From: a virus | Length of the DNA: 64,000 nt | Reading direction: 5' to 3' (one strand) | Virus record (IMG/VR): IMGVR_UViG_3300021178_000001 | Coordinates: 32,001-96,000 of that record | Part shown: positions 53,879 to 63,880 of the stretch, one piece after another | How the letters are laid out: every line of letters begins with the position of its first letter | Position numbering within the stretch: the stretch's first letter is position 1 | Notes under the pieces: model-generated | Database searches by the model: none | Seen by the model: the letters and a program-made list of their open reading frames with translations, nothing else | Told to the model about the DNA's origin: nothing | Position numbers and translations under genes: made by a program

Positions 53879-53901
53879 CTATTGAGATTTTGAGGGTAAG
53901 C

Positions 53902-55941
53902 ATGCCTGATAACAAAGATCTAAAACCGTCTATCTTCAGCAAGATGCTCGAAGCTGGCACTGCTTTACTGGACGCACAGATAGTCAAAGCCAAGTCAACC
54001 GTCATGAATCAGACCGTAGAAGACGACTTCTTTTACGCTAAAGCTGTGACCGAAGACCCAAGCTACGTAGTCACTTCTTCTGGGTGGAAAGAGAAGCCAG
54101 GCAGACTAATGGACGGCCATTTGCGCCAAATGAGCATCCAGAACTCCGTGGTTGCGGCCATTATTCAGACCAGACAAAATGAAGTCGCCAACCACTCCAA
54201 GTTAGTTAAGTCAGAAAAAGAGTGCGGTTGGAGGATGTGCCTACGAGACGAAGAAGCTCTCTTAGAAAAGATCAAGGAAGAGATTTTAGCCGAAATGGAA
54301 GCCAGCGGGCAACTTCCTCCCGGAGCCGAACCTCCACAAGACTCAGGTGAATCTCCCGACTCCGAAGGACTGCTCAACGAAGACATTGGAGAACCAGTAG
54401 AAAAAGCTGATCCCGAAGTAGACGCTTCAGTGGACGCCGGAGAAGAGTCTCAGACTGCTCACCCCGATGCCAGTTCAAAGTCTGACGACGAAGTGGAAGC
54501 GTACAACTTCGAACTTGAGCGCAAAGCTAAAGAGCGCTTGGAGACGAAGTTCAAGGACGCCAGGAAAAAAGCTCAAGACTATCTATTGAACTGCGGTCTC
54601 GTAGAGAACCGTCCGTTCGAAACTAAAAAGTGGAACTTTGACTCGGCGCTCAGAGCTTTAGTGCGAGATTCTTTAACTTACGATCGGTACACTACAGAAA
54701 CTGTTCCAGATAGAGCAAAGCGACCGCACCACTGGTTTCCCGTAGACGCAGCCACGATCAAGTACGCCGGACCCAACTTAAAGACTTACAAACAGATCGC
54801 CGACAACTTCATCAACTTGGACATTCTTTACCCAGAGAACCAAGCTATGGCGATGGAGAAACAGAAAGTTCTCGAACTAGACGAGAGCTTGATGGCTAAG
54901 AACGCCTACAAGTACGTTCAAATCATTCGAGGCAAGATTGAGCGCGCTTACACTGAAGACGAGCTCAAGATGGGGATTCGCAACATTACTACGGACATCT
55001 ACGCCAACAGCTACGGAGTGTCAGAGTTAGAACTGGCCGTATCTCTCGTTACTGGTCACCTCAACGCCGAGTTCTACAACCAAGCTTATTTCACTCAGGG
55101 ATTCTCAGCTAAAGGAATTCTCCACATCAAGGCGGCCATCAACCGTCGTAAACTAGAGACCGTGCGGCAACAGTGGCAGCACATGCTCAAGGGCGCGAGA
55201 AACTCCTTCCAGACCCCCATCTTCGCCGGCATGGAAGACGTGGCTTGGATTCCGCTGACTCAGAACCACAACGACATCGGTTTTGAGGGATGGATGCGGT
55301 ACCTCATCAAGATGCTGTGCGCGATCTATCAAATTGACCCCTACGAGATCGGAATCGGCTTCAAAGACGAGGGCACCGGCGGCGGAGGGATGTCCGGTGA
55401 CAACACTAAAGAAAAACTAGAGCACTCCAAGAACAAGGGCTTGTACCCGCTGTTGAGACACGTCGAGAGCTTCGTAAACGAGAATATTCTAAAACCATTC
55501 GACGCTCGGTTCATAATGGAGTTCACCGGCATAACTGCCGAGTCTAGAGAAGAGTCTGTCAAGCGTCAAGACCTAGAACGCAAGTTCAAGAAGACGCTCA
55601 ACGAGATTCGCGACGAGGACGGACTTCCTCCGTTGCCGGGCGGCGACGAGATCATCCTTGGCCCCGAGTTCATGACTTGGTACTCTAAGTTTAGTCCCAA
55701 AGCTTTGGAACAGCAGCAACAGCAACTCGACGCGCAGAATCAATCCGCTGGCGGAGACACCGGACAAGATCCATTTGGAATGGATGCCATGCCAGAAGAC
55801 TCTTTGATGAGCGGAGACAACTTAGAGTCGAACGCCATCAGTCCTGAACCGGCGGACAAACCTGGGCAACCTCCAGTCAAGAAGTCTAGACCAATCGGGT
55901 CTAAACGAGTCAAGATCGAGTACTACACTCTCAGGAAATAA
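53902..55941 (+). CDS. portal protein
   Basis: VRDSLTYD, PVDA.TI, YG.SELE, YF.QG...KGIL, AIYQIDP.EIG, T.NE.R...GLPP..GGD. Confidence 0.9.
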   Translation: MPDNKDLKPSIFSKMLEAGTALLDAQIVKAKSTVMNQTVEDDFFYAKAVTEDPSYVVTSSGWKEKPGRLMDGHLRQMSIQNSVVAAIIQTRQNEVANHSKLVKSEKECGWRMCLRDEEALLEKIKEEILAEMEASGQLPPGAEPPQDSGESPDSEGLLNEDIGEPVEKADPEVDASVDAGEESQTAHPDASSKSDDEVEAYNFELERKAKERLETKFKDARKKAQDYLLNCGLVENRPFETKKWNFDSALRALVRDSLTYDRYTTETVPDRAKRPHHWFPVDAATIKYAGPNLKTYKQIADNFINLDILYPENQAMAMEKQKVLELDESLMAKNAYKYVQIIRGKIERAYTEDELKMGIRNITTDIYANSYGVSELELAVSLVTGHLNAEFYNQAYFTQGFSAKGILHIKAAINRRKLETVRQQWQHMLKGARNSFQTPIFAGMEDVAWIPLTQNHNDIGFEGWMRYLIKMLCAIYQIDPYEIGIGFKDEGTGGGGMSGDNTKEKLEHSKNKGLYPLLRHVESFVNENILKPFDARFIMEFTGITAESREESVKRQDLERKFKKTLNEIRDEDGLPPLPGGDEIILGPEFMTWYSKFSPKALEQQQQQLDAQNQSAGGDTGQDPFGMDAMPEDSLMSGDNLESNAISPEPADKPGQPPVKKSRPIGSKRVKIEYYTLRK

Positions 55942-55942
55942 T

Positions 55943-56185
55943 ATGGCTAAGGTAAAAATTTTACTAGAGCCTGGCGAGTCTCAACTAGACGCCGACCACG
56001 CTTTGCAGAAAGCGTTGGAACACCATTCCCAAGGAAGCGCCCACGACGACGAGTCGTTCGACGATCCCGCCATGGTAGACTTGGCTCAACGTTTAGAGAG
56101 CGATCACTCCAAGATGTACATCGAGATGATGCGCGAGATTCTCGACGTATTAGACGAGGAGTACTCATCAGATGGTAACCTCTAG
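55943..56185 (+). CDS. acidic hypothetical protein
   Basis: AGGA RBS; follows the portal gene. Confidence 0.6.
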   Translation: MAKVKILLEPGESQLDADHALQKALEHHSQGSAHDDESFDDPAMVDLAQRLESDHSKMYIEMMREILDVLDEEYSSDGNL

Positions 56186-57080
56186 AGAAACTCTCGAGAA
56201 AATTCGCGAGATCATAGCAAAACACTACGCTAAGTTCTCCATTTCTATGTTGGGGCGATCCGCGTTCACGCCCGACGAACTGAGAGAATTACAAGCTGCG
56301 GGCATAGACACTTCCAACAAGAGTTCTTTCTTGGAAATGGTGTACATGCACAATTTTATCAACAACCCGCGCGGGAGAAACTCTCCCACGTCGGTCGAAG
56401 ACATGAAGGCTCAGCAGTCCGAGTCCGGTATAAAGCCGCACGGCGAAGCCAACGACTACACGGTCAACAACTTAAACGACAAGACGAAGCAACTCATCGA
56501 TAAACTCAGAGCTGACGTTGCGGCTCGCATTGAGGGTTTCATCCGAGACAACAACGACGCCTATAAATTTAACGCTCTCGCCAACTTAGACCGCACCGAC
56601 GCCATGGACGAGTTAGTCAAGGAATCATCGCTCGGTCGAGTTAAACAGAAGCTAAGAGACTCGTCTAAAGACGCCAACCGCGACTGGCAGCGCGTCGCAC
56701 TCACTGAGATGTCCAACGCCATAGGAATCGGGTCCGTAGACCGCATCGTCACAGACAACCGTGGCGCCGATTTGGATGACATCTACGTATATAGAATCAT
56801 TGTGGGCGACGCTCTGACGTGCAAGTACTGTAGGCGTTTTTACGGAGACGTCGGGCAAGCTCCAAAACTGTATAGACTTTCTACACTTTTGGCGAATGGC
56901 TCTAATTACGGGTTAAAGCAAGATTCTTGGAAACCTGTGTCCGGTGCGACACATCCTAACACAAGAACTTCGGCTGTACTAGAGTTAAAGCCTGGGTTTG
57001 AAGTTAGACCAGGCGGTTCAGTCACTTACATAGGACTCGCAAAGTGGGCGAACTACGTCCACGAAGTGCTAGTCGGATAA
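56172..57080 (+). CDS. minor head/head morphogenesis protein (Mu gpF/SPP1 gp7-like)
   Basis: W.RVA.TE, CKYC, HPNTR. Confidence 0.75.
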   Translation: MVTSRETLEKIREIIAKHYAKFSISMLGRSAFTPDELRELQAAGIDTSNKSSFLEMVYMHNFINNPRGRNSPTSVEDMKAQQSESGIKPHGEANDYTVNNLNDKTKQLIDKLRADVAARIEGFIRDNNDAYKFNALANLDRTDAMDELVKESSLGRVKQKLRDSSKDANRDWQRVALTEMSNAIGIGSVDRIVTDNRGADLDDIYVYRIIVGDALTCKYCRRFYGDVGQAPKLYRLSTLLANGSNYGLKQDSWKPVSGATHPNTRTSAVLELKPGFEVRPGGSVTYIGLAKWANYVHEVLVG

Positions 57081-57086
57081 TTTTCG

Positions 57087-57122
57087 TTTACTTTCGTTCC
57101 CTTCTACTTTACAATCTAAGAC
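57087..57122 (+). promoter_or_regulatory. sigma70-like promoter heading the chaperone/protease cluster
   Basis: TTTACT-N17-TACAAT-N7-ATG. Confidence 0.6.
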
Positions 57123-57329
57123 ATGATTAAAGAATTCCAAGAAGGTGAAGTTTACCGTAACTCCAAACTTACCCAAGACGTCATGGTCTATGCCGTCGGA
57201 ATAGACGATCCAGAAGAAGTAGTTCTAGCCGTTGGTTTTATAGATCGAGCATCTGAAGAGATGACCACTCCGGGCGAACTAACTGTCAAAAAAGCTGATT
57301 TCGGAGACTGGGAACTCCTCAAGTTATGA
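57123..57329 (+). CDS. hypothetical protein
   Basis: 68 aa; ATGA overlap with the next gene. Confidence 0.6.
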   Translation: MIKEFQEGEVYRNSKLTQDVMVYAVGIDDPEEVVLAVGFIDRASEEMTTPGELTVKKADFGDWELLKL

Positions 57330-57859
57330 GTGCGATAGACGACAAGCTCAAGCAGCTCAAAGAACAAGAACTTCAACTTCAGCGTGAAAAACGTAAAGTT
57401 GAACTTCTCAATTTGATCCTTAGTTCCACTAAGGATTTACCACAAGAGATTGGTTTTCCAGACGTCAAGGACGAGGTAGTTACTCTGTTGGGAGAGTTCG
57501 TGAAGAACGCTACTTGGGCTATCGAGACTGGGTCGGTGCTGTGTTACGAGGCGGACAATAGAGTTCCGATTATCGAGACCACTCACCGCGCACCTCAAAT
57601 TGTGAGTCCAGTAGAGCAACCAGTAAAACCTACACCTACACCTATAGCTAAAACTGGCGCACCAGAACTCAGTCCAAACGAAAAGTTGAACTTCGCGCTC
57701 GATAACCGACATTTGGGTGGTAAAAAAGTCACAGTCGCAAACGACAAGAACCTTGTCATCAACGGCACGGTTGTTGGACTCGACGCTCCTCACGTACTTG
57801 TTAAGACAGATACAGGACCTACCATAAAAGTGCCTTTGGATAACGTGAGTTTAGCATGA
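57326..57859 (+). CDS. hypothetical protein with C-terminal Sm/SH3-like (RimP-C/Hfq-like) barrel
   Basis: GKKVTV...INGTVVGLD..HVLVKT....IKVPLDNV. Confidence 0.45.
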   Translation: MSAIDDKLKQLKEQELQLQREKRKVELLNLILSSTKDLPQEIGFPDVKDEVVTLLGEFVKNATWAIETGSVLCYEADNRVPIIETTHRAPQIVSPVEQPVKPTPTPIAKTGAPELSPNEKLNFALDNRHLGGKKVTVANDKNLVINGTVVGLDAPHVLVKTDTGPTIKVPLDNVSLA

Positions 57860-58308
57860 GTGATTTTTACGATAAAAAACAGTTGGACGAGGCGCAAGCT
57901 AAAATTCGTGAGAACGCAACTCCTCAACAGTTAAAGATGCTGGAGGATGCAGACGCTGCGTTTGATGAAGTTCAAGACGAATTCGTTCAACGTCAGAGCG
58001 AGGAAGATAAGCTCCGTAGATGGGCGTTTAATTTGTGTGGGTTCAACCTAGACATGAGTGAGATTGAGCATCTAAGAGATGTAGCTAAAATGTTAACCCC
58101 GGGAACTACGACTACTTTCTTAGCCAAGCGTGGAGTTACGCAACTCTTTAAGACTGCTTTCGGCACCCTTGATCGAGTAGATCGTTATCTTCAAACTTTG
58201 GAACGCACGGTAATCGACATCACCAACAACAGTCAGTTTACACCGCTATCATTTTGTGATCTAATAAAGTTAGCTTTCAAACGTCTACTCAAGAGGAACC
58301 AACGATGA
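57856..58308 (+). CDS. hypothetical protein
   Basis: Helical 150 aa, coupled to neighbours. Confidence 0.6.
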   Translation: MSDFYDKKQLDEAQAKIRENATPQQLKMLEDADAAFDEVQDEFVQRQSEEDKLRRWAFNLCGFNLDMSEIEHLRDVAKMLTPGTTTTFLAKRGVTQLFKTAFGTLDRVDRYLQTLERTVIDITNNSQFTPLSFCDLIKLAFKRLLKRNQR

Positions 58309-58931
58309 CCAACAAACGTAAGAACTCTAATCCAGTCGCAAAACAAGTTCACCCTCAACTGTCCTTCCAGCAGTTGTTGGCCGACGCTACCTTGGCTAAG
58401 TTTAGCGGATACATCAACGAACAAATTCAAGCGTTAGCTGAAAAACTCACGGAGTACCAGGCCACACTGCAAAAGCAGTCTACACAGGACTTGATGACAC
58501 GCATCGTCTCTTTGGAAGAGATTGTCATGCAGAATATTCCGACAGTCACTAAAGAAGTGTTGGCTTCTCAAGTTGCTACCGTAGAAGACCGCAGCGAGGG
58601 TCTCAACCAAGTCTCCGACGGTGAAGTTGAGCTCAACGATCGCGTACGCGTAGAGATCAAGACTAAGACCACAGATCAGACTGATTTTCAAGGATCTTCT
58701 AGACTGCGCATCGACGGCGTCGGCAGCGGCAGTACTTTGGGTAAAGAACTCGAGGGATCTATCTTGGGTATGAAAGTTGGAGAAACTAAAGAAGTAAAGT
58801 TCGGCAAGGACGGAAACCTCATAGCTAGTATCTTGCTCAGCAGGACCTCGCGCGCTCCTAAGACAGAGTCTGCAGTGCCGCCTCCCCCTCAAACTGAAGG
58901 AGCTGCCAATGCCAGTGCAAATGCGGGGTAA
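58305..58931 (+). CDS. coiled-coil + trigger-factor-type FKBP (PPIase-fold) protein
   Basis: EVELNDRVRVEI...DFQG...GVGSGSTLGKELEGSILGMKVGETKEV resembles the trigger factor FKBP domain. Confidence 0.7.
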   Translation: MTNKRKNSNPVAKQVHPQLSFQQLLADATLAKFSGYINEQIQALAEKLTEYQATLQKQSTQDLMTRIVSLEEIVMQNIPTVTKEVLASQVATVEDRSEGLNQVSDGEVELNDRVRVEIKTKTTDQTDFQGSSRLRIDGVGSGSTLGKELEGSILGMKVGETKEVKFGKDGNLIASILLSRTSRAPKTESAVPPPPQTEGAANASANAG

Positions 58932-59175
58932 GCGAGTGGGTGTCGAGAAACTAGGTAAGTCATCCAGTGACCCCAAGAGTCTCTTCGCCATGCCTGAAGA
59001 CACCAGCGCCGTCGGAATTATACGCTACGTGGGCAGCGATCTAAAAGATCCAGACCTCAAAGTCGGCACTAAAGTGTACTTTGGGGATCAGCGTCAGCAA
59101 ATGAAGATCCACGGCATTGACATTCTAGTCATGGAAGAGACCAATGTGCTAGCCGTCGCTCAAGACGACACGTAG
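58909..59175 (+). CDS. groES: co-chaperonin GroES (Cpn10)
   Basis: G.RV.V, G.I..VG, LKVG.KVYF, I.G..ILVM.E.NVLAV; 88 aa. Confidence 0.8.
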   Translation: MPVQMRGKRVGVEKLGKSSSDPKSLFAMPEDTSAVGIIRYVGSDLKDPDLKVGTKVYFGDQRQQMKIHGIDILVMEETNVLAVAQDDT

Positions 59176-59192
59176 AAATTTCTGGAGGGTGC

Positions 59193-59804
59193 ATGTCGAG
59201 AAAACAAGTGAGAGACGATCTTGAACGTTTTCATGACTATAGCATTTACTTGCCCTCTAGAACTATTTACATGGGATCGGAAGAGCATCACATAGAGCAC
59301 GGTGACAGCGGTACGGACGGAGCCATGGCAGAGCGCACCGCTAAAAACCTACATATACTAGACTCTATTTCCGCTGAACCGATCAACGTGGTGATGAACA
59401 ACATCGGCGGAGACGAGTACGAGTGCTTTGCCATAATCGACGCGATCCGTCAGTGCCGTTCTAAAGTGATCATCACTGTAATGGGGCATGCAATGTCTGC
59501 GGGATCTCTGATACTTCAAGCGGCGGATGAGCGAGTAATGGCACCTTTGGCTGTACAAATGATGCACTATGGAACTTGGGGTTGCATAGACCACTCCAAG
59601 ACTTTTCAAAAGTGGGCCCGCGAGGGTAAGCGGATAGACGAGTGGATGGAGCAGTTTTATCTCGATAGAATTCACCTGAAGCACCCAGCATTCACTCTCA
59701 AGAAGTTGAAGAGCATGCTCGACCACGACACTTTCTTGACGGCCGAAGAGAGTGTAGCCTTGGGTCTATGCGACAGAGTTCTAGAATCAAGAGTCAAAGA
59801 GTGA
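59193..59804 (+). CDS. clpP: ClpP-like serine protease
   Basis: RTIYM, N.GG, G.AMSAG (Ser), MMH (His), HDTFLTAEE...LGL.D (Asp). Confidence 0.9.
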   Translation: MSRKQVRDDLERFHDYSIYLPSRTIYMGSEEHHIEHGDSGTDGAMAERTAKNLHILDSISAEPINVVMNNIGGDEYECFAIIDAIRQCRSKVIITVMGHAMSAGSLILQAADERVMAPLAVQMMHYGTWGCIDHSKTFQKWAREGKRIDEWMEQFYLDRIHLKHPAFTLKKLKSMLDHDTFLTAEESVALGLCDRVLESRVKE

Positions 59805-60571
59805 GCAACAAGAATCTAAAACAAATCTACGACCGCTCGTGTGAGCGTTCGATTCCAGAAAACAAGAGTAACTCTGGGCCAAGTATAAAACCGTCGATTT
59901 TAGGATCTCCGTGCTTGCGCAAAGTGTACTACTCGTACAACAAGGCGCCCGAAGACATTCCGTTCCCACTGACTAGCTCAAGAATAACTAGTTTGGGAAA
60001 TGCCATCGGCAAGATGTTGTTCGACGCCTTCGACAAGCAAGGCGTTGTCGTTAGATTCAGAAAACCCGACGGCACTTATCATGTGGACCAGCACACTGGT
60101 GAAGTAGACTTCGAGTTTAGACTAACTTCACCTGAACTAGGAATTCGCCTTGGTAAGATTGACGCGGTTTTGATCTTAGACGACGGTTTGTGGTTGGGCG
60201 AGTTTAAGTCCATCAACGACCGCGGGTTCAAAGAACTCAAGGCTCCAAAAGGTGACCACACTATACAAGGTGTACTGTACTTGTACTTGTTCAACAAAGC
60301 TCTCAAAGAAGGTGAGTTCAAGCACATTCCCGAATTAGCCAAGTTTGACAAGGCCAACGGCATCCGATTCCTTTATTACTACAAAGATAAGTCTGAACTT
60401 AAGGAATTTTTCATAACTACTGCGGACGAGTTGTTCAGACAAATTGTTCTGAAAATTGAACAAGTTAAGTGGTTCTCGGAGAACAATCAGGTACCTCCTC
60501 CCACCGAAGACTACTGCAGGACTTGCGCCTATCAATTCAGGTGTCAAAAGAATAAAAAAGCAAACGACTAA
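59801..60571 (+). CDS. Cas4-like PD-(D/E)xK exonuclease with four-Cys cluster
   Basis: PS..G.PC.R, G.ID, EFKS, Q..LY, C..C.....C. Confidence 0.85.
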   Translation: MSNKNLKQIYDRSCERSIPENKSNSGPSIKPSILGSPCLRKVYYSYNKAPEDIPFPLTSSRITSLGNAIGKMLFDAFDKQGVVVRFRKPDGTYHVDQHTGEVDFEFRLTSPELGIRLGKIDAVLILDDGLWLGEFKSINDRGFKELKAPKGDHTIQGVLYLYLFNKALKEGEFKHIPELAKFDKANGIRFLYYYKDKSELKEFFITTADELFRQIVLKIEQVKWFSENNQVPPPTEDYCRTCAYQFRCQKNKKAND

Positions 60572-60611
60572 ACTAGTATCCGTGGGATAAGTCTCCGGTA
60601 TAATATAGTTC

Positions 60612-60797
60612 ATGGACGCGCTGGACTACAGGATTCTTACGAAACGACAAGAGCTTAGGGACTTACTAAGGTTTGCTCTTTCGCAAAGTACTGTATTTTT
60701 GCCCATGGTCAGGGACCTGAAACTTGAAATCTCAGTTTGTGACTGTGCTTTAAATAAATTGTATCGTAGGCACGCTGTACGCGTTGTTTTACGCTAG
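60612..60797 (+). CDS. hypothetical protein
   Basis: TATAAT-N7-ATG. Confidence 0.5.
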   Translation: MDALDYRILTKRQELRDLLRFALSQSTVFLPMVRDLKLEISVCDCALNKLYRRHAVRVVLR

Positions 60798-60812
60798 ATC
60801 AAGAGGAATTCA

Positions 60813-61763
60813 ATGAAGAAACTACTCATATTGTCAGCAATTATGCTCGGATTAATGGTGGCGCCGATCGCAGTAATGAAGGCTGGTAAGCTAGCAGCTC
60901 ACGCTACGTCGACTGAAGCAGTCAACGAGAACTATCAAAAACAAGCGCTTCCTTCACAAAATACGGCGCTGTCCGTAGACGAACCAAAAATTTTCGACGT
61001 ACAAAAGACTATCAATCTAGAAGACGACGATACCGTAGTCCTCAAGGGTCCGGTGACAGACGACTCTGTCTCGGCCGTTGAAAAGAGACTTCAAGAGATC
61101 AGTCTTAAGCTCAGCAAAAACGCCCACATACGATTGGTGCTCGACACACCCGGAGGCGACATCACGGCTGGATCCGACTTGATCGACTTTGCAAAAGCCT
61201 TGCCTCAAAAAGTAGACACCATTTCTTTGTTCGCGGCGTCCATGGGCTTCCAAATCGCGGAAAATCTAAATACCAGGTACATCACTCGTACCGGAGTCTT
61301 GATGAGTCACCGAGCACGTCTCGGAGGCCTCGAAGGACAAATCAACGGCGAGTTCGAGAGTCGCTACAAGATGATTCGTCGTCAAGTAGACTTCATGGAA
61401 CTCATCGCTTCTAAGAGGATGGGCATCGACCTAGAGACGTACCGCAAAAAGATCGTGAATGAACTCTGGGTGTACGGCTTCGACGCTCTAGAAGAGAGAG
61501 TAGCAGACGAGACGGTTGCCGTGACTTGCGGCAAGTCGATGACTGGCTCATACTCTCAAGTGTTCAATACGATGATGGGTCCAGTTAAAGTCACTTTTAA
61601 CAAGTGCCCACTCATCAAAGCTCCCGAATCGGTAGAACTTAGTCAGATCGTGATCGGAGAACAAGACAAGGTTGAAGCAGCCGTTCGCATGGCGTTCAAC
61701 AACCAAAAGAAATTCGTGGACGAGTACATCACCACTAATCGTTTCTTCACCATTTTCAAGTAA
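60813..61763 (+). CDS. ClpP/crotonase-fold protease with N-terminal signal or membrane anchor
   Basis: MKKLLILSAIMLGLMVAPIAV leader; L.GPV, DTPGG, AASMG (Ser), LMSH (His). Confidence 0.75.
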   Translation: MKKLLILSAIMLGLMVAPIAVMKAGKLAAHATSTEAVNENYQKQALPSQNTALSVDEPKIFDVQKTINLEDDDTVVLKGPVTDDSVSAVEKRLQEISLKLSKNAHIRLVLDTPGGDITAGSDLIDFAKALPQKVDTISLFAASMGFQIAENLNTRYITRTGVLMSHRARLGGLEGQINGEFESRYKMIRRQVDFMELIASKRMGIDLETYRKKIVNELWVYGFDALEERVADETVAVTCGKSMTGSYSQVFNTMMGPVKVTFNKCPLIKAPESVELSQIVIGEQDKVEAAVRMAFNNQKKFVDEYITTNRFFTIFK

Positions 61764-61822: not shown

Positions 61823-62284
61823 ATGGAACCTAAATCTAAGTTAACACTGTTAAAGCGTCCGCAAGACTTGGGCGCGGTCAACAACTTCTGGCGGTGTTGC
61901 CCGCTTTCTAACGAGTACTTGCCTGAAACGACGTGCCCAGAGGGTTCCCCCAACATCGTTAAGGGCAAAATTGTGGAAGAACCTAGGTGCGCCTGGTGGC
62001 TGAACTCGGCTAACCACAACTTCTGTTTTTGGCGATACGTCAAAGATAAGTCGGATTCCGACGGCATGATGCGCGAATTGGTGCAGTCAGAGCTAGCTGC
62101 CCTTTTTGGATGGTCTAACACTAAAACACACTTTATGCTAAAACAAGCTATGACTGAACTTATTGAAGCGATGCGTGTGTACGGCGCGAAAGACTTGCTG
62201 CAAGACTTGGAAGACAATGACTCGGACGTAGAGATCAGTTTAGGCAACCTCTTAGACCCCAGTTCTGAAGACCATCTCGAATAA
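61823..62284 (+). CDS. Cys-rich protein with a sigma70 region-4-like HTH
   Basis: CCP..CP..CAW..CFW, then QSELAALFGWS......LKQAM..L. Confidence 0.5.
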   Translation: MEPKSKLTLLKRPQDLGAVNNFWRCCPLSNEYLPETTCPEGSPNIVKGKIVEEPRCAWWLNSANHNFCFWRYVKDKSDSDGMMRELVQSELAALFGWSNTKTHFMLKQAMTELIEAMRVYGAKDLLQDLEDNDSDVEISLGNLLDPSSEDHLE

Positions 62285-62295
62285 ACTTGGATTAT

Positions 62296-62835
62296 ATGCA
62301 AATTAGTAAGTCATTATCTAGACATAGAGCTAGAAGAGCATGGGAAAGTTATTATAAAGCATCAATCTTGCCAGGAATGCATCTCCATCACAGAGACAGT
62401 AATTCTAGAAATAATAGCATTGAAAATTTAGTAGTTTGTACTCCAGAAGAACACGTAGAGTTTCATAGACAATTAGGTCATAAAATTCAACAAAATTATA
62501 TATTTAAAGCAAACTTTTTTGCCGACATGACGGTAGAAGAGCAAGAAGCATTCAGACGGAAAGCAAGTGAATATTCTAAACGTAGGATAAATTTAAGTAG
62601 ATCAGATCAAACTAGACTATTGTGTAAACTCAATAGTGCTCTTCAAGCTAACTCACTTGAAATGATAGACGTTGAAACTGGTAAAATTGTAAGTGAGTTC
62701 TTTAGCATTAAAGAAGCAGCTGAAAAACTTGACATTCAACGTGCTCATATACGGCGAGTCATAACCGGCGAGCGCAAAGGTTGGAGAGGCTATGTCTTTA
62801 GATACAAAGAGTTCAGAAATGCAGGACACCTTTAA
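62296..62835 (+). CDS. HNH homing endonuclease with NUMOD1-like tail
   Basis: HLHHRD.N..NN.IENL..C...EH...H; F.SIKEAA..L...I..V..G.RK...GY.FRY. Confidence 0.9.
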   Translation: MQISKSLSRHRARRAWESYYKASILPGMHLHHRDSNSRNNSIENLVVCTPEEHVEFHRQLGHKIQQNYIFKANFFADMTVEEQEAFRRKASEYSKRRINLSRSDQTRLLCKLNSALQANSLEMIDVETGKIVSEFFSIKEAAEKLDIQRAHIRRVITGERKGWRGYVFRYKEFRNAGHL

Positions 62836-63880
62836 GTTTGTAATTCCCGCAGACCTTGAAAAAGGCAAAGACGGCGAATGGAAGATTAGTGGTCTAGCTT
62901 CAACTCAGAAGGTAGACCTGCAAGGTGAAACCATAATTCAAAAAGGTATCGACTTAACTCCAATTGATAAGAAAAAAGGAGTGATTAATTTCGATCATCA
63001 ACGCGGACCTGAAAACACTATAGGTCTTTTAGACGGGTACACTCGCACCGAAAAAGGACTTTTCATCGAAGGCCGTCTCTTTAAGAATCATACTAAGGCC
63101 AAAGCAGTGTATGAGATTATGTCTTCTTTGGGTGAGAACGATCGCGGTCGTGTAGGTCTTAGTGTAGAAGGTAAAATATTAAAACGCAGTTTGACTAATC
63201 CAGCAATAATTGAGAGATGCCAGATAAATGCAGTTGCTGTTACTCTTTCACCTGTAAATTCAGAGACTTTTGCAGATTTAGTTAAGTCTATGAACTCGGC
63301 CGATTCTGTGGAGTTCAACGCCGAAGAGCAAATCTCTGAGACTAATCCCAACGAAGCCACCTTTACTGCTGACCAAGTCATGGCTATCGTTCAAAAAGCT
63401 CTAGCCGTCGGTGGCCCCGCAGCGGTTGGTCCTCCGAACGCTAAGACAGGCGGTAACGCTCTTCAGCCCTCCGACATGTCGGCTGAGCCAAAGAAGAAGA
63501 AAAAGCTCAAGAAGATGGTCTCCGGCATGTACAAGTCGAGTCTAGTCAGTATCCTCGACAAACTGCAGGTTTTATATCCCCAGTGCTCTCGCTCAGAGAT
63601 CTGGGAAGCTGTAAAAGACCGGCTAGACACTAAGTTTGAGATGGAAAAAGGCTTGCGCATCAAGAATACTTCGGGCAAAGAGCGCGAGCACAAGTTGTAC
63701 GAAGACGCCCGCCAGCGCGGCGACTACGAGACCAATAAAGATAAGTCGAGAGCTGAACTTAACCAACTGGCCGAGCAGTCGGGCGCCGGCAAGCACGACA
63801 AGCAAAAGATTAGGGCTCAACGCGACGCCGCAATTCAAGTCGGTGAGCGAGACCACGTCAGACCCAACGTAAAAGGTTAA
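62819..63880 (+). CDS. prohead (capsid maturation) protease with charged C-terminal extension
   Basis: ISGLAST..VD.QGE, NFDH, GLSVEG, VAVT..PVN.ET. Confidence 0.85.
   Translation: MQDTFKFVIPADLEKGKDGEWKISGLASTQKVDLQGETIIQKGIDLTPIDKKKGVINFDHQRGPENTIGLLDGYTRTEKGLFIEGRLFKNHTKAKAVYEIMSSLGENDRGRVGLSVEGKILKRSLTNPAIIERCQINAVAVTLSPVNSETFADLVKSMNSADSVEFNAEEQISETNPNEATFTADQVMAIVQKALAVGGPAAVGPPNAKTGGNALQPSDMSAEPKKKKKLKKMVSGMYKSSLVSILDKLQVLYPQCSRSEIWEAVKDRLDTKFEMEKGLRIKNTSGKEREHKLYEDARQRGDYETNKDKSRAELNQLAEQSGAGKHDKQKIRAQRDAAIQVGERDHVRPNVKG

Follow-up and report, generated by a model that had tools for sequence, protein, structure and literature searches.

A conserved FKBP-GroES-ClpP gene block in the head module of an uncultured soil phage with no visible AAA+ unfoldase

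The window analyzed here is a stretch of 64,000 nucleotides, bases 32001-96000 of the 114,255-bp IMG/VR record IMGVR_UViG_3300021178_000001, a phage genome with direct terminal repeats that is rated complete. Between the portal and prohead protease genes of its head module lies a run of closely spaced genes, three of which encode, in direct succession, a 208-aa protein with a predicted FKBP fold, an 88-aa GroES co-chaperonin and a 203-aa ClpP-family serine peptidase (ClpP203). The best explanation, to which we assign a probability of roughly 60%, is a conserved accessory block of ~115-kb soil phages, extending from portal to prohead protease, whose chaperone and protease parts would work with host machines. 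A first-pass annotation, made from the sequence alone, had proposed a fold/isomerise/degrade pipeline. The folds and families of its parts stand, but the isomerase is doubtful and a second ClpP-fold protein of the block, the 316-aa ClpP316, is predicted to be exported; a joint action of the parts in a single pipeline is our inference, and so is every partner and every substrate.

The source is a soil phage that is uncultured and has no close relatives in culture. Near-identical DNA is present in the soil metagenomes of at least two further studies. The DNA of the block finds no match among GenBank phages by blastn, and among public runs none with RNA is listed for the block.

Conservation of the block

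The first-pass annotation would have these genes occur together in related phages, and they do. The order terminase, portal, 302-aa gene, p177, p150, FKBP-fold gene, groES, clpP, Cas4-like nuclease gene, ClpP316 gene, p153 and prohead protease gene recurs in the related loci L005, L012, L021 and L028, with p150 and ClpP316 as optional members (ClpP316 is missing in L012). The short contigs L002-L004 and L006 hold part of this order. For the order FKBP-GroES-ClpP-Cas4-(ClpP316), identity in at least four related contigs is 45-65%; FKBP-fold proteins of the syntenic relatives show 41-57% identity. The FKBP-fold gene and groES are adjacent in all eight of the loci that have both, clpP comes next wherever the contig continues, and wherever a relative has groES, this gene precedes clpP by 17 nt. 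Three arrangements of FKBP and clpP genes were seen: FKBP-GroES-ClpP, FKBP-ClpP (L014), and ClpP and FKBP separated by one gene (L049 and L050). Linkage in three arrangements indicates that the two genes travel together.

GroEL is encoded in the syntenic genomes G001 and G002, the records behind L012 and L021, at 65-67% identity, and the GroES and FKBP genes are there too. With this genome counted, 15 of the 30 ClpP-bearing records tested have GroEL, a count that describes a tendency and is not a statistic, as the records are mutually related; about 0.5% of GenBank phage records match GroEL.

The FKBP-fold protein

Sequence models recognize the 208-aa protein weakly. Pfam FKBP_C scores 17.9 bits (E 0.0039), under its cut-off of 21.1, and the NCBIfam tig model matches residues 76-166 (E 5.7e-6) with 25 bits against a cut-off of 180, covering only positions 117-208 of the 410 in the profile. 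An AlphaFold model built from seven close homologues (mean predicted local distance difference test, pLDDT, 76) places helices at residues 21-77 and 83-97, followed by a five-stranded domain with one helix. The best Foldseek matches of this model are trigger factor, SlyD, and FKBP13 and other FKBPs. FKBP domains take all 31 top places in an exhaustive VIA search (Z 7.0-9.8, root-mean-square deviation ~2.2-2.7 Å over ~80 residues), those of the chloroplast, Thermotoga and E. coli trigger factors included, while the long helix matches generic coiled coils only. The modelled structure is thus that of an FKBP domain, in agreement with the trigger-factor-type FKBP of the first-pass annotation.

When 1.8 billion representatives were searched by profile, 245 clusters proved to share the length and architecture of the protein. 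FKBP_C is matched by 17 of 68 sampled family members at E <=0.01 (best 4e-7), and the best solved match of the broad family profile is the prolyl isomerase (PPIase) domain of E. coli trigger factor, 1L1P (0.007). For residues 98-187, trigger factor PPIase (E. coli 1L1P and the T. maritima trigger factor 3GTY) is the best match in both sequence and fold, and the protein is likely descended from a PPIase domain of this type. Unlike trigger factor, it lacks the ribosome-binding N domain and the C-terminal arm domain: Trigger_N and Trigger_C give no match to it at E 0.1, and the GFR motif is absent. In place of these domains it has the 57-residue helix and the second helix. No relative was found with the family profile in IMG/VR, nor any match by tblastn among GenBank phages.

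The isomerization step of the proposed pipeline fares less well. Aligned with the E. coli trigger factor PPIase domain, the pocket carries the substitutions F168 to I118, F185 to L134, F198 to L149 and F233 to Ala/Ser; F177, equivalent to F128 in the phage protein, is the sole pocket aromatic retained, and the flap loop, FPEEYHAEN in E. coli, is deleted. Because the aromatic residues are replaced and the flap is gone, prolyl isomerase activity appears doubtful.

A more conventional form occurs in L014, a locus whose ClpP is 58% identical and which has the same order of portal and 302-aa genes. Directly upstream of its clpP is a 181-aa trigger-factor-type protein with a full FKBP_C domain (38.3 bits, over the cut-off), which retains the aromatic residues and a flap, FPEDYGAKEIAGKTAQF, closely resembling the trigger-factor motif; a gene annotated as tig is among its tblastn matches. 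A 201-aa FKBP_C protein (22.3 bits in L049, which passes the cut-off) is encoded one gene downstream of clpP in L049 and L050. The phage loci, L014 most clearly, mirror the bacterial tig-clpP order. The conserved bacterial tig-clpP-clpX neighbourhood has been tied to a physical interaction between trigger factor and ClpX; E. coli trigger factor is a ClpX adaptor whose PPIase domain contacts the AAA+ ring, and isomerase activity is not required (PMC7804408).

Two other readings of the 208-aa protein were considered and dropped. A coiled coil followed by an FKBP-like C-terminal domain could suggest a GreA/GreB-like protein, but neither the top 50 VIA rows nor the Foldseek matches contain a Gre factor, and GreA_GreB is touched by one of 68 family members, at 0.003. 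A frameshift fusion of the FKBP-fold protein with GroES could be suspected from the 23-nt overlap of the two genes and the conserved NASANAG tail. However, groES has its own strong Shine-Dalgarno site and ATG, and conservation of the tail can follow from the overlapped N-terminus of GroES.

GroES and GroEL

The 88-aa protein is a true GroES. Pfam Cpn10 (PF00166) scores 19.8 bits (E 8e-4), just under its 21.1 cut-off, and only marginal matches came from the search with the GroES-like protein. Fourteen orthologues were found at 57-73% identity, three of which carry PF00166. The family profile matches solved GroES over its full length at E 4.4e-6. The AlphaFold model (pLDDT 74) finds GroES chains at template modelling (TM) scores around 0.7 (0.65-0.73, E 2e-5) and T4 gp31 at 1.3e-3. 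Residues 18-29 are disordered (pLDDT <50), as expected of the mobile loop; there the sequence SLFAMPED aligns with G-I-V-I-P-D of GroES, and AMPED is nearly invariant. Judged from alignment gaps, the roof beta-hairpin is ~7 residues shorter than that of GroES.

In its Cpn10 fold, mobile loop, shortened roof hairpin and encoding by a phage, the protein is like T4 gp31 and virioplankton GroES. Some viral GroES clusters, as well as gp31, have a shortened roof hairpin, and GroES is encoded too in ~40% of viral contigs with GroEL (Marine et al. 2017, PMC5649160). The present protein differs in its mobile-loop motif, LFAMPED against G-I-V-L in the virioplankton GroES and gp31 comparison, and in the fixed position of its gene between the FKBP-fold gene and clpP inside a head module. 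In three further related records (G003-G005) GroES was found neither by PF00166 nor by the family profile. The PF00166 result there is uninformative, because the same search missed the GroES genes known in G001 and G002.

GroEL, described as full-length by the first-pass annotation, is confirmed by Cpn60 (134.7 bits) and phrog_5725 (E 1e-108). It matches E. coli GroEL at E 1e-89 and the co-chaperonin-independent phage EL chaperonin at 9e-23. The ATP-site motifs are kept (DGTTT, the equivalent of Asp398, and GGG), and Ile or Leu occupies positions 234, 237, 259, 263 and 264, the apical positions of helices H and I that bind GroES. Pairing of phage GroES with phage GroEL is the default reading and the most likely one.

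A GroEL orthologue at L087:238-2838, in the record behind L012, has an in-frame insertion of ~326 aa just past the DGTTT region. The insertion contains a LAGLIDADG_3 domain (2.7e-6) and looks like an intein in a phage chaperonin.

ClpP203

CLP_protease scores 83.4 bits for ClpP203 against a cut-off of 20.2. The intact triad reported by the first-pass annotation, Ser102, His125 and Asp179, is invariant in 28 relatives and aligns with the triad of solved ClpPs; the N-terminal 40 residues are ClpP-like in length and highly conserved. Housekeeping ClpP models are not reached (TIGR00493, 44 vs 308.6 bits; best ClpP subfamily, 69 vs 228). The nearest solved relative is P. aeruginosa ClpP2 (PaClpP2), at 60 bits and E 2e-15, with the next match at 40 bits. 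PaClpP2 forms an inactive heptamer alone and becomes active once stacked on ClpP1, and ClpX docks on ClpP1 only (PMC12451819). Like PaClpP2 (7M1L, 9NDJ), ClpP203 would be an accessory-type ClpP without its own ATPase; unlike PaClpP2, to which its identity is about one third, it belongs to a viral family.

That family is large and is found essentially only in viruses. It comprises 348 clusters at E <=1e-5, most of them 60-84% identical, and 335 IMG/VR contigs. In species-representative genomes, all close relatives lie on contigs of metagenome-assembled genomes (MAGs), while isolates reach only ~31-33% identity. The MAG labels (L097-L104) are wildly discordant, namely Saprospiraceae, Saccharibacteria, Thermoplasmatales, Phycisphaerae, Pseudobdellovibrionaceae, Heimdallarchaeota and Ignavibacteriaceae, and three of the eight contigs measure 113-129 kb, like whole phage genomes. 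Phage DNA that was binned into MAGs is the most likely identity of these contigs.

In L007 and L010, the closest relatives (64% identity), the gene is surrounded by genes for a DnaB-like helicase, a DNA ligase, an SNF2 helicase and a methylase. ClpP203 is 62-65% identical to proteins of the non-syntenic 98-171-kb phages L007-L011 and 49-50% identical to those of the syntenic L021 and L028, a pattern suggesting that phage lineages may have exchanged clpP. In three relatives a second cytoplasmic ClpP paralogue, with no signal peptide, directly follows clpP (L008:11127-11873, L016:11170-11937 and L034:10626-11267); these pairs could be a phage version of the ClpP1/ClpP2 type.

ClpP316 and the Cas4-like nuclease

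The first-pass annotation counted a second ClpP-fold protein into the same pipeline. The fold holds for ClpP316 (CLP_protease, 45 bits); its membership in a cytosolic pathway does not. A signal peptide or membrane anchor, such as MKKLLLTAFLLMLSTFAEA, stands at the start of each of the eight homologues examined. Conserved in the family are Ser (in FAASMGF), His (in MSHR) and, as the third member of the triad, Glu or Asp; there is also a C-terminal extension with two conserved Cys. With such N-termini ClpP316 is predicted to be exported and to act in the envelope, and so would be no part of a cytosolic pathway. It resembles SppA S49, NfeD and SDH-type proteases in having a ClpP fold, a Ser-His pair and, at the N-terminus, a signal for export or anchoring; it differs from them in matching CLP_protease only, in its own two-Cys extension and in being encoded by a phage. 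ClpP316 represents a second uncharacterised viral enzyme family, one with a conserved signal peptide.

The nuclease encoded after clpP matches PDDEXK_1 (25.7 bits, cut-off 22), phrog_1706 (4e-22) and TIGR00372 (6e-6), and has the four-Cys cluster of one N-terminal Cys plus a C-terminal CxxCx5C. Cas4-specific models stay below their cut-offs (17.9 vs 22.7 and 26 vs 65 bits), for which reason it is called Cas4-like only, as it was by the first-pass annotation. Neither this nuclease nor the HNH gene described below has a link to proteostasis.

Unfoldase and tmRNA

The first-pass annotation saw no AAA+ unfoldase in the window. This can now be extended: no AAA or AAA_2 domain was found in the complete genome, nor in five related records, of which three are complete. 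The controls of these searches came out positive in 14 of 14 genomes.

The genome does encode a tmRNA (transfer-messenger RNA) at 104850-105258, ~8.8 kb beyond the end of the window. Its tag, ANDNVVSLNAFRARKNVVSLQHAA, is unusually long, with 24 residues; it ends in AA and contains NVVSL twice. ARAGORN finds no tRNA genes in the genome. A tmRNA was also found in one other ClpP-bearing phage.

Gene map of the head module

All open reading frames (ORFs) named in the first-pass annotation are present where it placed them, and every gene of the block is on the + strand (Table 1). The closely spaced, mostly overlapping genes it described are separated by gaps of 15-40 nt or overlap by 4-37 nt, and strong Shine-Dalgarno sites precede groES (GAAGGAG before ATG) and clpP (GGAGG before ATG). 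The one promoter-like site it placed ahead of the block exists. It is graded weak, because such sites in the region are not above those in shuffled sequence (13 observed, 9.2 +/- 3.2 in shuffles).

On the left flank, the portal is ~37% identical to SPO1-like portals. The 302-aa gene that follows had been called a minor head gene, a label that could not be verified, as Pfam and PHROG give no match. At L012:6012-8223 its homologue is about twice as long, with a second fragment after it, which suggests an insertion or a split. The small ORF product p177 is conserved in L002, L005, L012, L021 and L028 and has a weak match to the SH3-like Myosin_N (0.017).

On the right flank, p153 immediately precedes the prohead protease in every lineage examined, even in the distant L049 and L050. 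The HNH gene overlaps the start of the prohead protease gene by 44 nt and is absent between p153 and the prohead protease in L005, L012, L021 and L028; it is probably a recent homing-endonuclease insertion.

Table 1. Features of the head-module block, its flanks and the distant GroEL gene (window coordinates).
Feature	Position	Strand	Remarks
GroEL, canonical group I chaperonin, 540 aa	28256..29878	+	Cpn60, phrog_5725
Portal, left flank of head module	53890..55941	+	Phage_portal 1e-13, phrog_11117 5e-38
80-aa ORF	55943..56185	+	gene map
302-aa conserved gene after portal	56172..57080	+	position kept in relatives
Promoter-like site TTTACT-17-TACAAT ahead of block	57087..57115	+	weak, 9/12 matches
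p68, 68-aa ORF	57123..57329	+	no family match; conserved in L002
p177, 177-aa ORF	57326..57859	+	N-terminal coiled coil, Pro-rich linker, C-terminal small beta domain
p150, 150-aa ORF	57856..58308	+	no family match; conserved in L002, L021, L028
Predicted FKBP-fold protein, 208 aa	58305..58931	+	long helix 21-77, helix 83-97, FKBP fold 104-185
GroES/Cpn10 co-chaperonin, 88 aa	58909..59175	+	mobile loop 18-29 (LFAMPED), shortened roof hairpin
ClpP203, ClpP-family serine peptidase, 203 aa	59193..59804	+	triad Ser102/His125/Asp179
Cas4-like PD-(D/E)XK nuclease, 267 aa	59768..60571	+	C-terminal CxxCx5C
p61, 61-aa ORF	60612..60797	+	among loci compared, homologue only in own genome
ClpP316, predicted exported ClpP-fold serine protease, 316 aa	60813..61763	+	signal/anchor, Ser-His-Glu, C-terminal extension, two conserved Cys
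p153, Cys-rich 153-aa ORF	61823..62284	+	no family match
HNH/NUMOD homing-type endonuclease	62287..62835	+	HNH_3 5.5e-8, I-HmuI_NUMOD-like 1.4e-9
Prohead (head maturation) protease, right flank	62792..63880	+	phrog_1028 1e-36, residues 4-166; conserved in relatives

Discussion

Several observations weigh against an accessory block directed at host machines. The best NCBIfam model for ClpP203 is that of ClpP-related head maturation proteases (NF045542, 89.9 bits), the best PHROG model is phrog_94, also a head maturation protease (1e-34), and tblastn also matches it, at 31-34% identity, to Gordonia and Arthrobacter phage proteins annotated as capsid maturation proteases. Its gene stands in the head module in L014, L049 and L050 also. 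The distance from groES to groEL is 30 kb and that to clpP 17 nt, while adjacent GroES-GroEL pairs are usual in viral contigs (PMC5649160). The analogy with PaClpP2 is incomplete, because the alignment ends four residues before the C-terminus of ClpP203, which lacks most of the tail that blocks the cleft in PaClpP2. The first two of these observations would be accounted for if the whole block served capsid assembly, with ClpP203 as a second head maturation protease, the FKBP-fold protein as a scaffold-like chaperone and GroES acting like gp31 on the major capsid protein; the block is in the head module in every lineage with this portal type (the window, L005, L012, L014, L021, L028, L049 and L050), and ClpP203 shares fold, triad and position with the ClpP-related head maturation proteases. 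We nevertheless consider this unlikely. The score of ClpP203 is under the cut-off of 120 bits for that model, no scaffold or capsid domain is fused to it, and its conserved N-terminal region is ClpP-like in length. All these lineages have a distinct prohead protease gene immediately ahead of those for scaffold and capsid. Taken with the closest relatives of ClpP203 being encoded among replication genes, that separate protease speaks against ClpP203 as the capsid protease.

The adjacency might instead mean nothing, the region being a landing zone for unrelated accessory genes that act alone or are inactive. The same block does hold a Cas4-like nuclease, an HNH endonuclease and several ORFs of no known family, ClpP316 is dispensable in L012, GroEL is distant, and members of the ClpP family occur elsewhere in quite different neighbourhoods. 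A landing zone is nonetheless quite improbable in view of the invariant FKBP-GroES adjacency with clpP next to it, the linkage of FKBP and clpP genes in three different arrangements, and the echo of the bacterial tig-clpP-clpX neighbourhood with its trigger factor-ClpX interaction (PMC7804408). Yet another use of the 17-nt proximity of groES to clpP in all relatives would be for the GroES heptamer to cap the ClpP203 ring instead of, or besides, GroEL, so as to gate or inhibit it. GroES and ClpP both form seven-fold rings, and the chloroplast Cpn11/20/23 co-chaperonin reportedly sits on chloroplast ClpP. Among the matches from the fold search with the GroES model are the co-chaperonin chains of 7ekq, a chloroplast ClpP complex (bioRxiv 10.1101/2021.07.26.453741). 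A complex prediction for two copies of ClpP203 with the GroES-like protein scored 0.01 against a mark of 0.32, from which no verdict is drawn. Capping of ClpP203 is highly improbable, given a canonical phage GroEL that keeps its GroES-binding hydrophobic residues and a ClpP family mostly found without this GroES.

In the accessory block that we favour, GroES would cap phage GroEL and fold late phage proteins, as T4 gp31 does with host GroEL. ClpP203 would take its substrates through host ClpX or ClpA, on which it must rely if the complete genome has no AAA+ unfoldase. It might dock the host ATPase directly or form a stack with a ClpP ring of the host, in the manner of PaClpP2 on ClpP1; with most of the cleft-plugging tail missing, direct docking is equally possible. 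Having lost the aromatic pocket and the flap, the 208-aa protein would most likely be a non-catalytic binding module, a holdase or an adaptor, carried on a long helical stalk. ClpP316 would act in the envelope, apart from the other parts, and the Cas4-like nuclease would be a passenger.

A bolder version, resting on analogy with the bacterial system and improbable when taken as a whole, would have a captured and remodelled tig-clpP module hijack host ClpX: the FKBP-fold protein would serve as a non-catalytic adaptor, the ClpP203 ring would stack on host ClpP and alter the choice of proteins cleaved, tmRNA-tagged proteins would be among the substrates, and phage GroEL-GroES would fold late proteins. 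If this were true, a virus would be redirecting protein degradation in its host while encoding no ATPase itself.

Phage GroES and GroEL are already known (PMC5649160), as are ClpP-like proteases and tmRNA in phages; as far as we have found, the conserved combination is new. We found no description in the literature of a conserved block of FKBP, GroES and non-capsid ClpP genes with GroEL and tmRNA and no unfoldase, and searches with phrases such as "phage ClpP" found no study of phage ClpP. Because the viral ClpP family is large and half of the tested records carry GroEL, the role of a phage ClpP without an ATPase is a question for many soil and other environmental phages.

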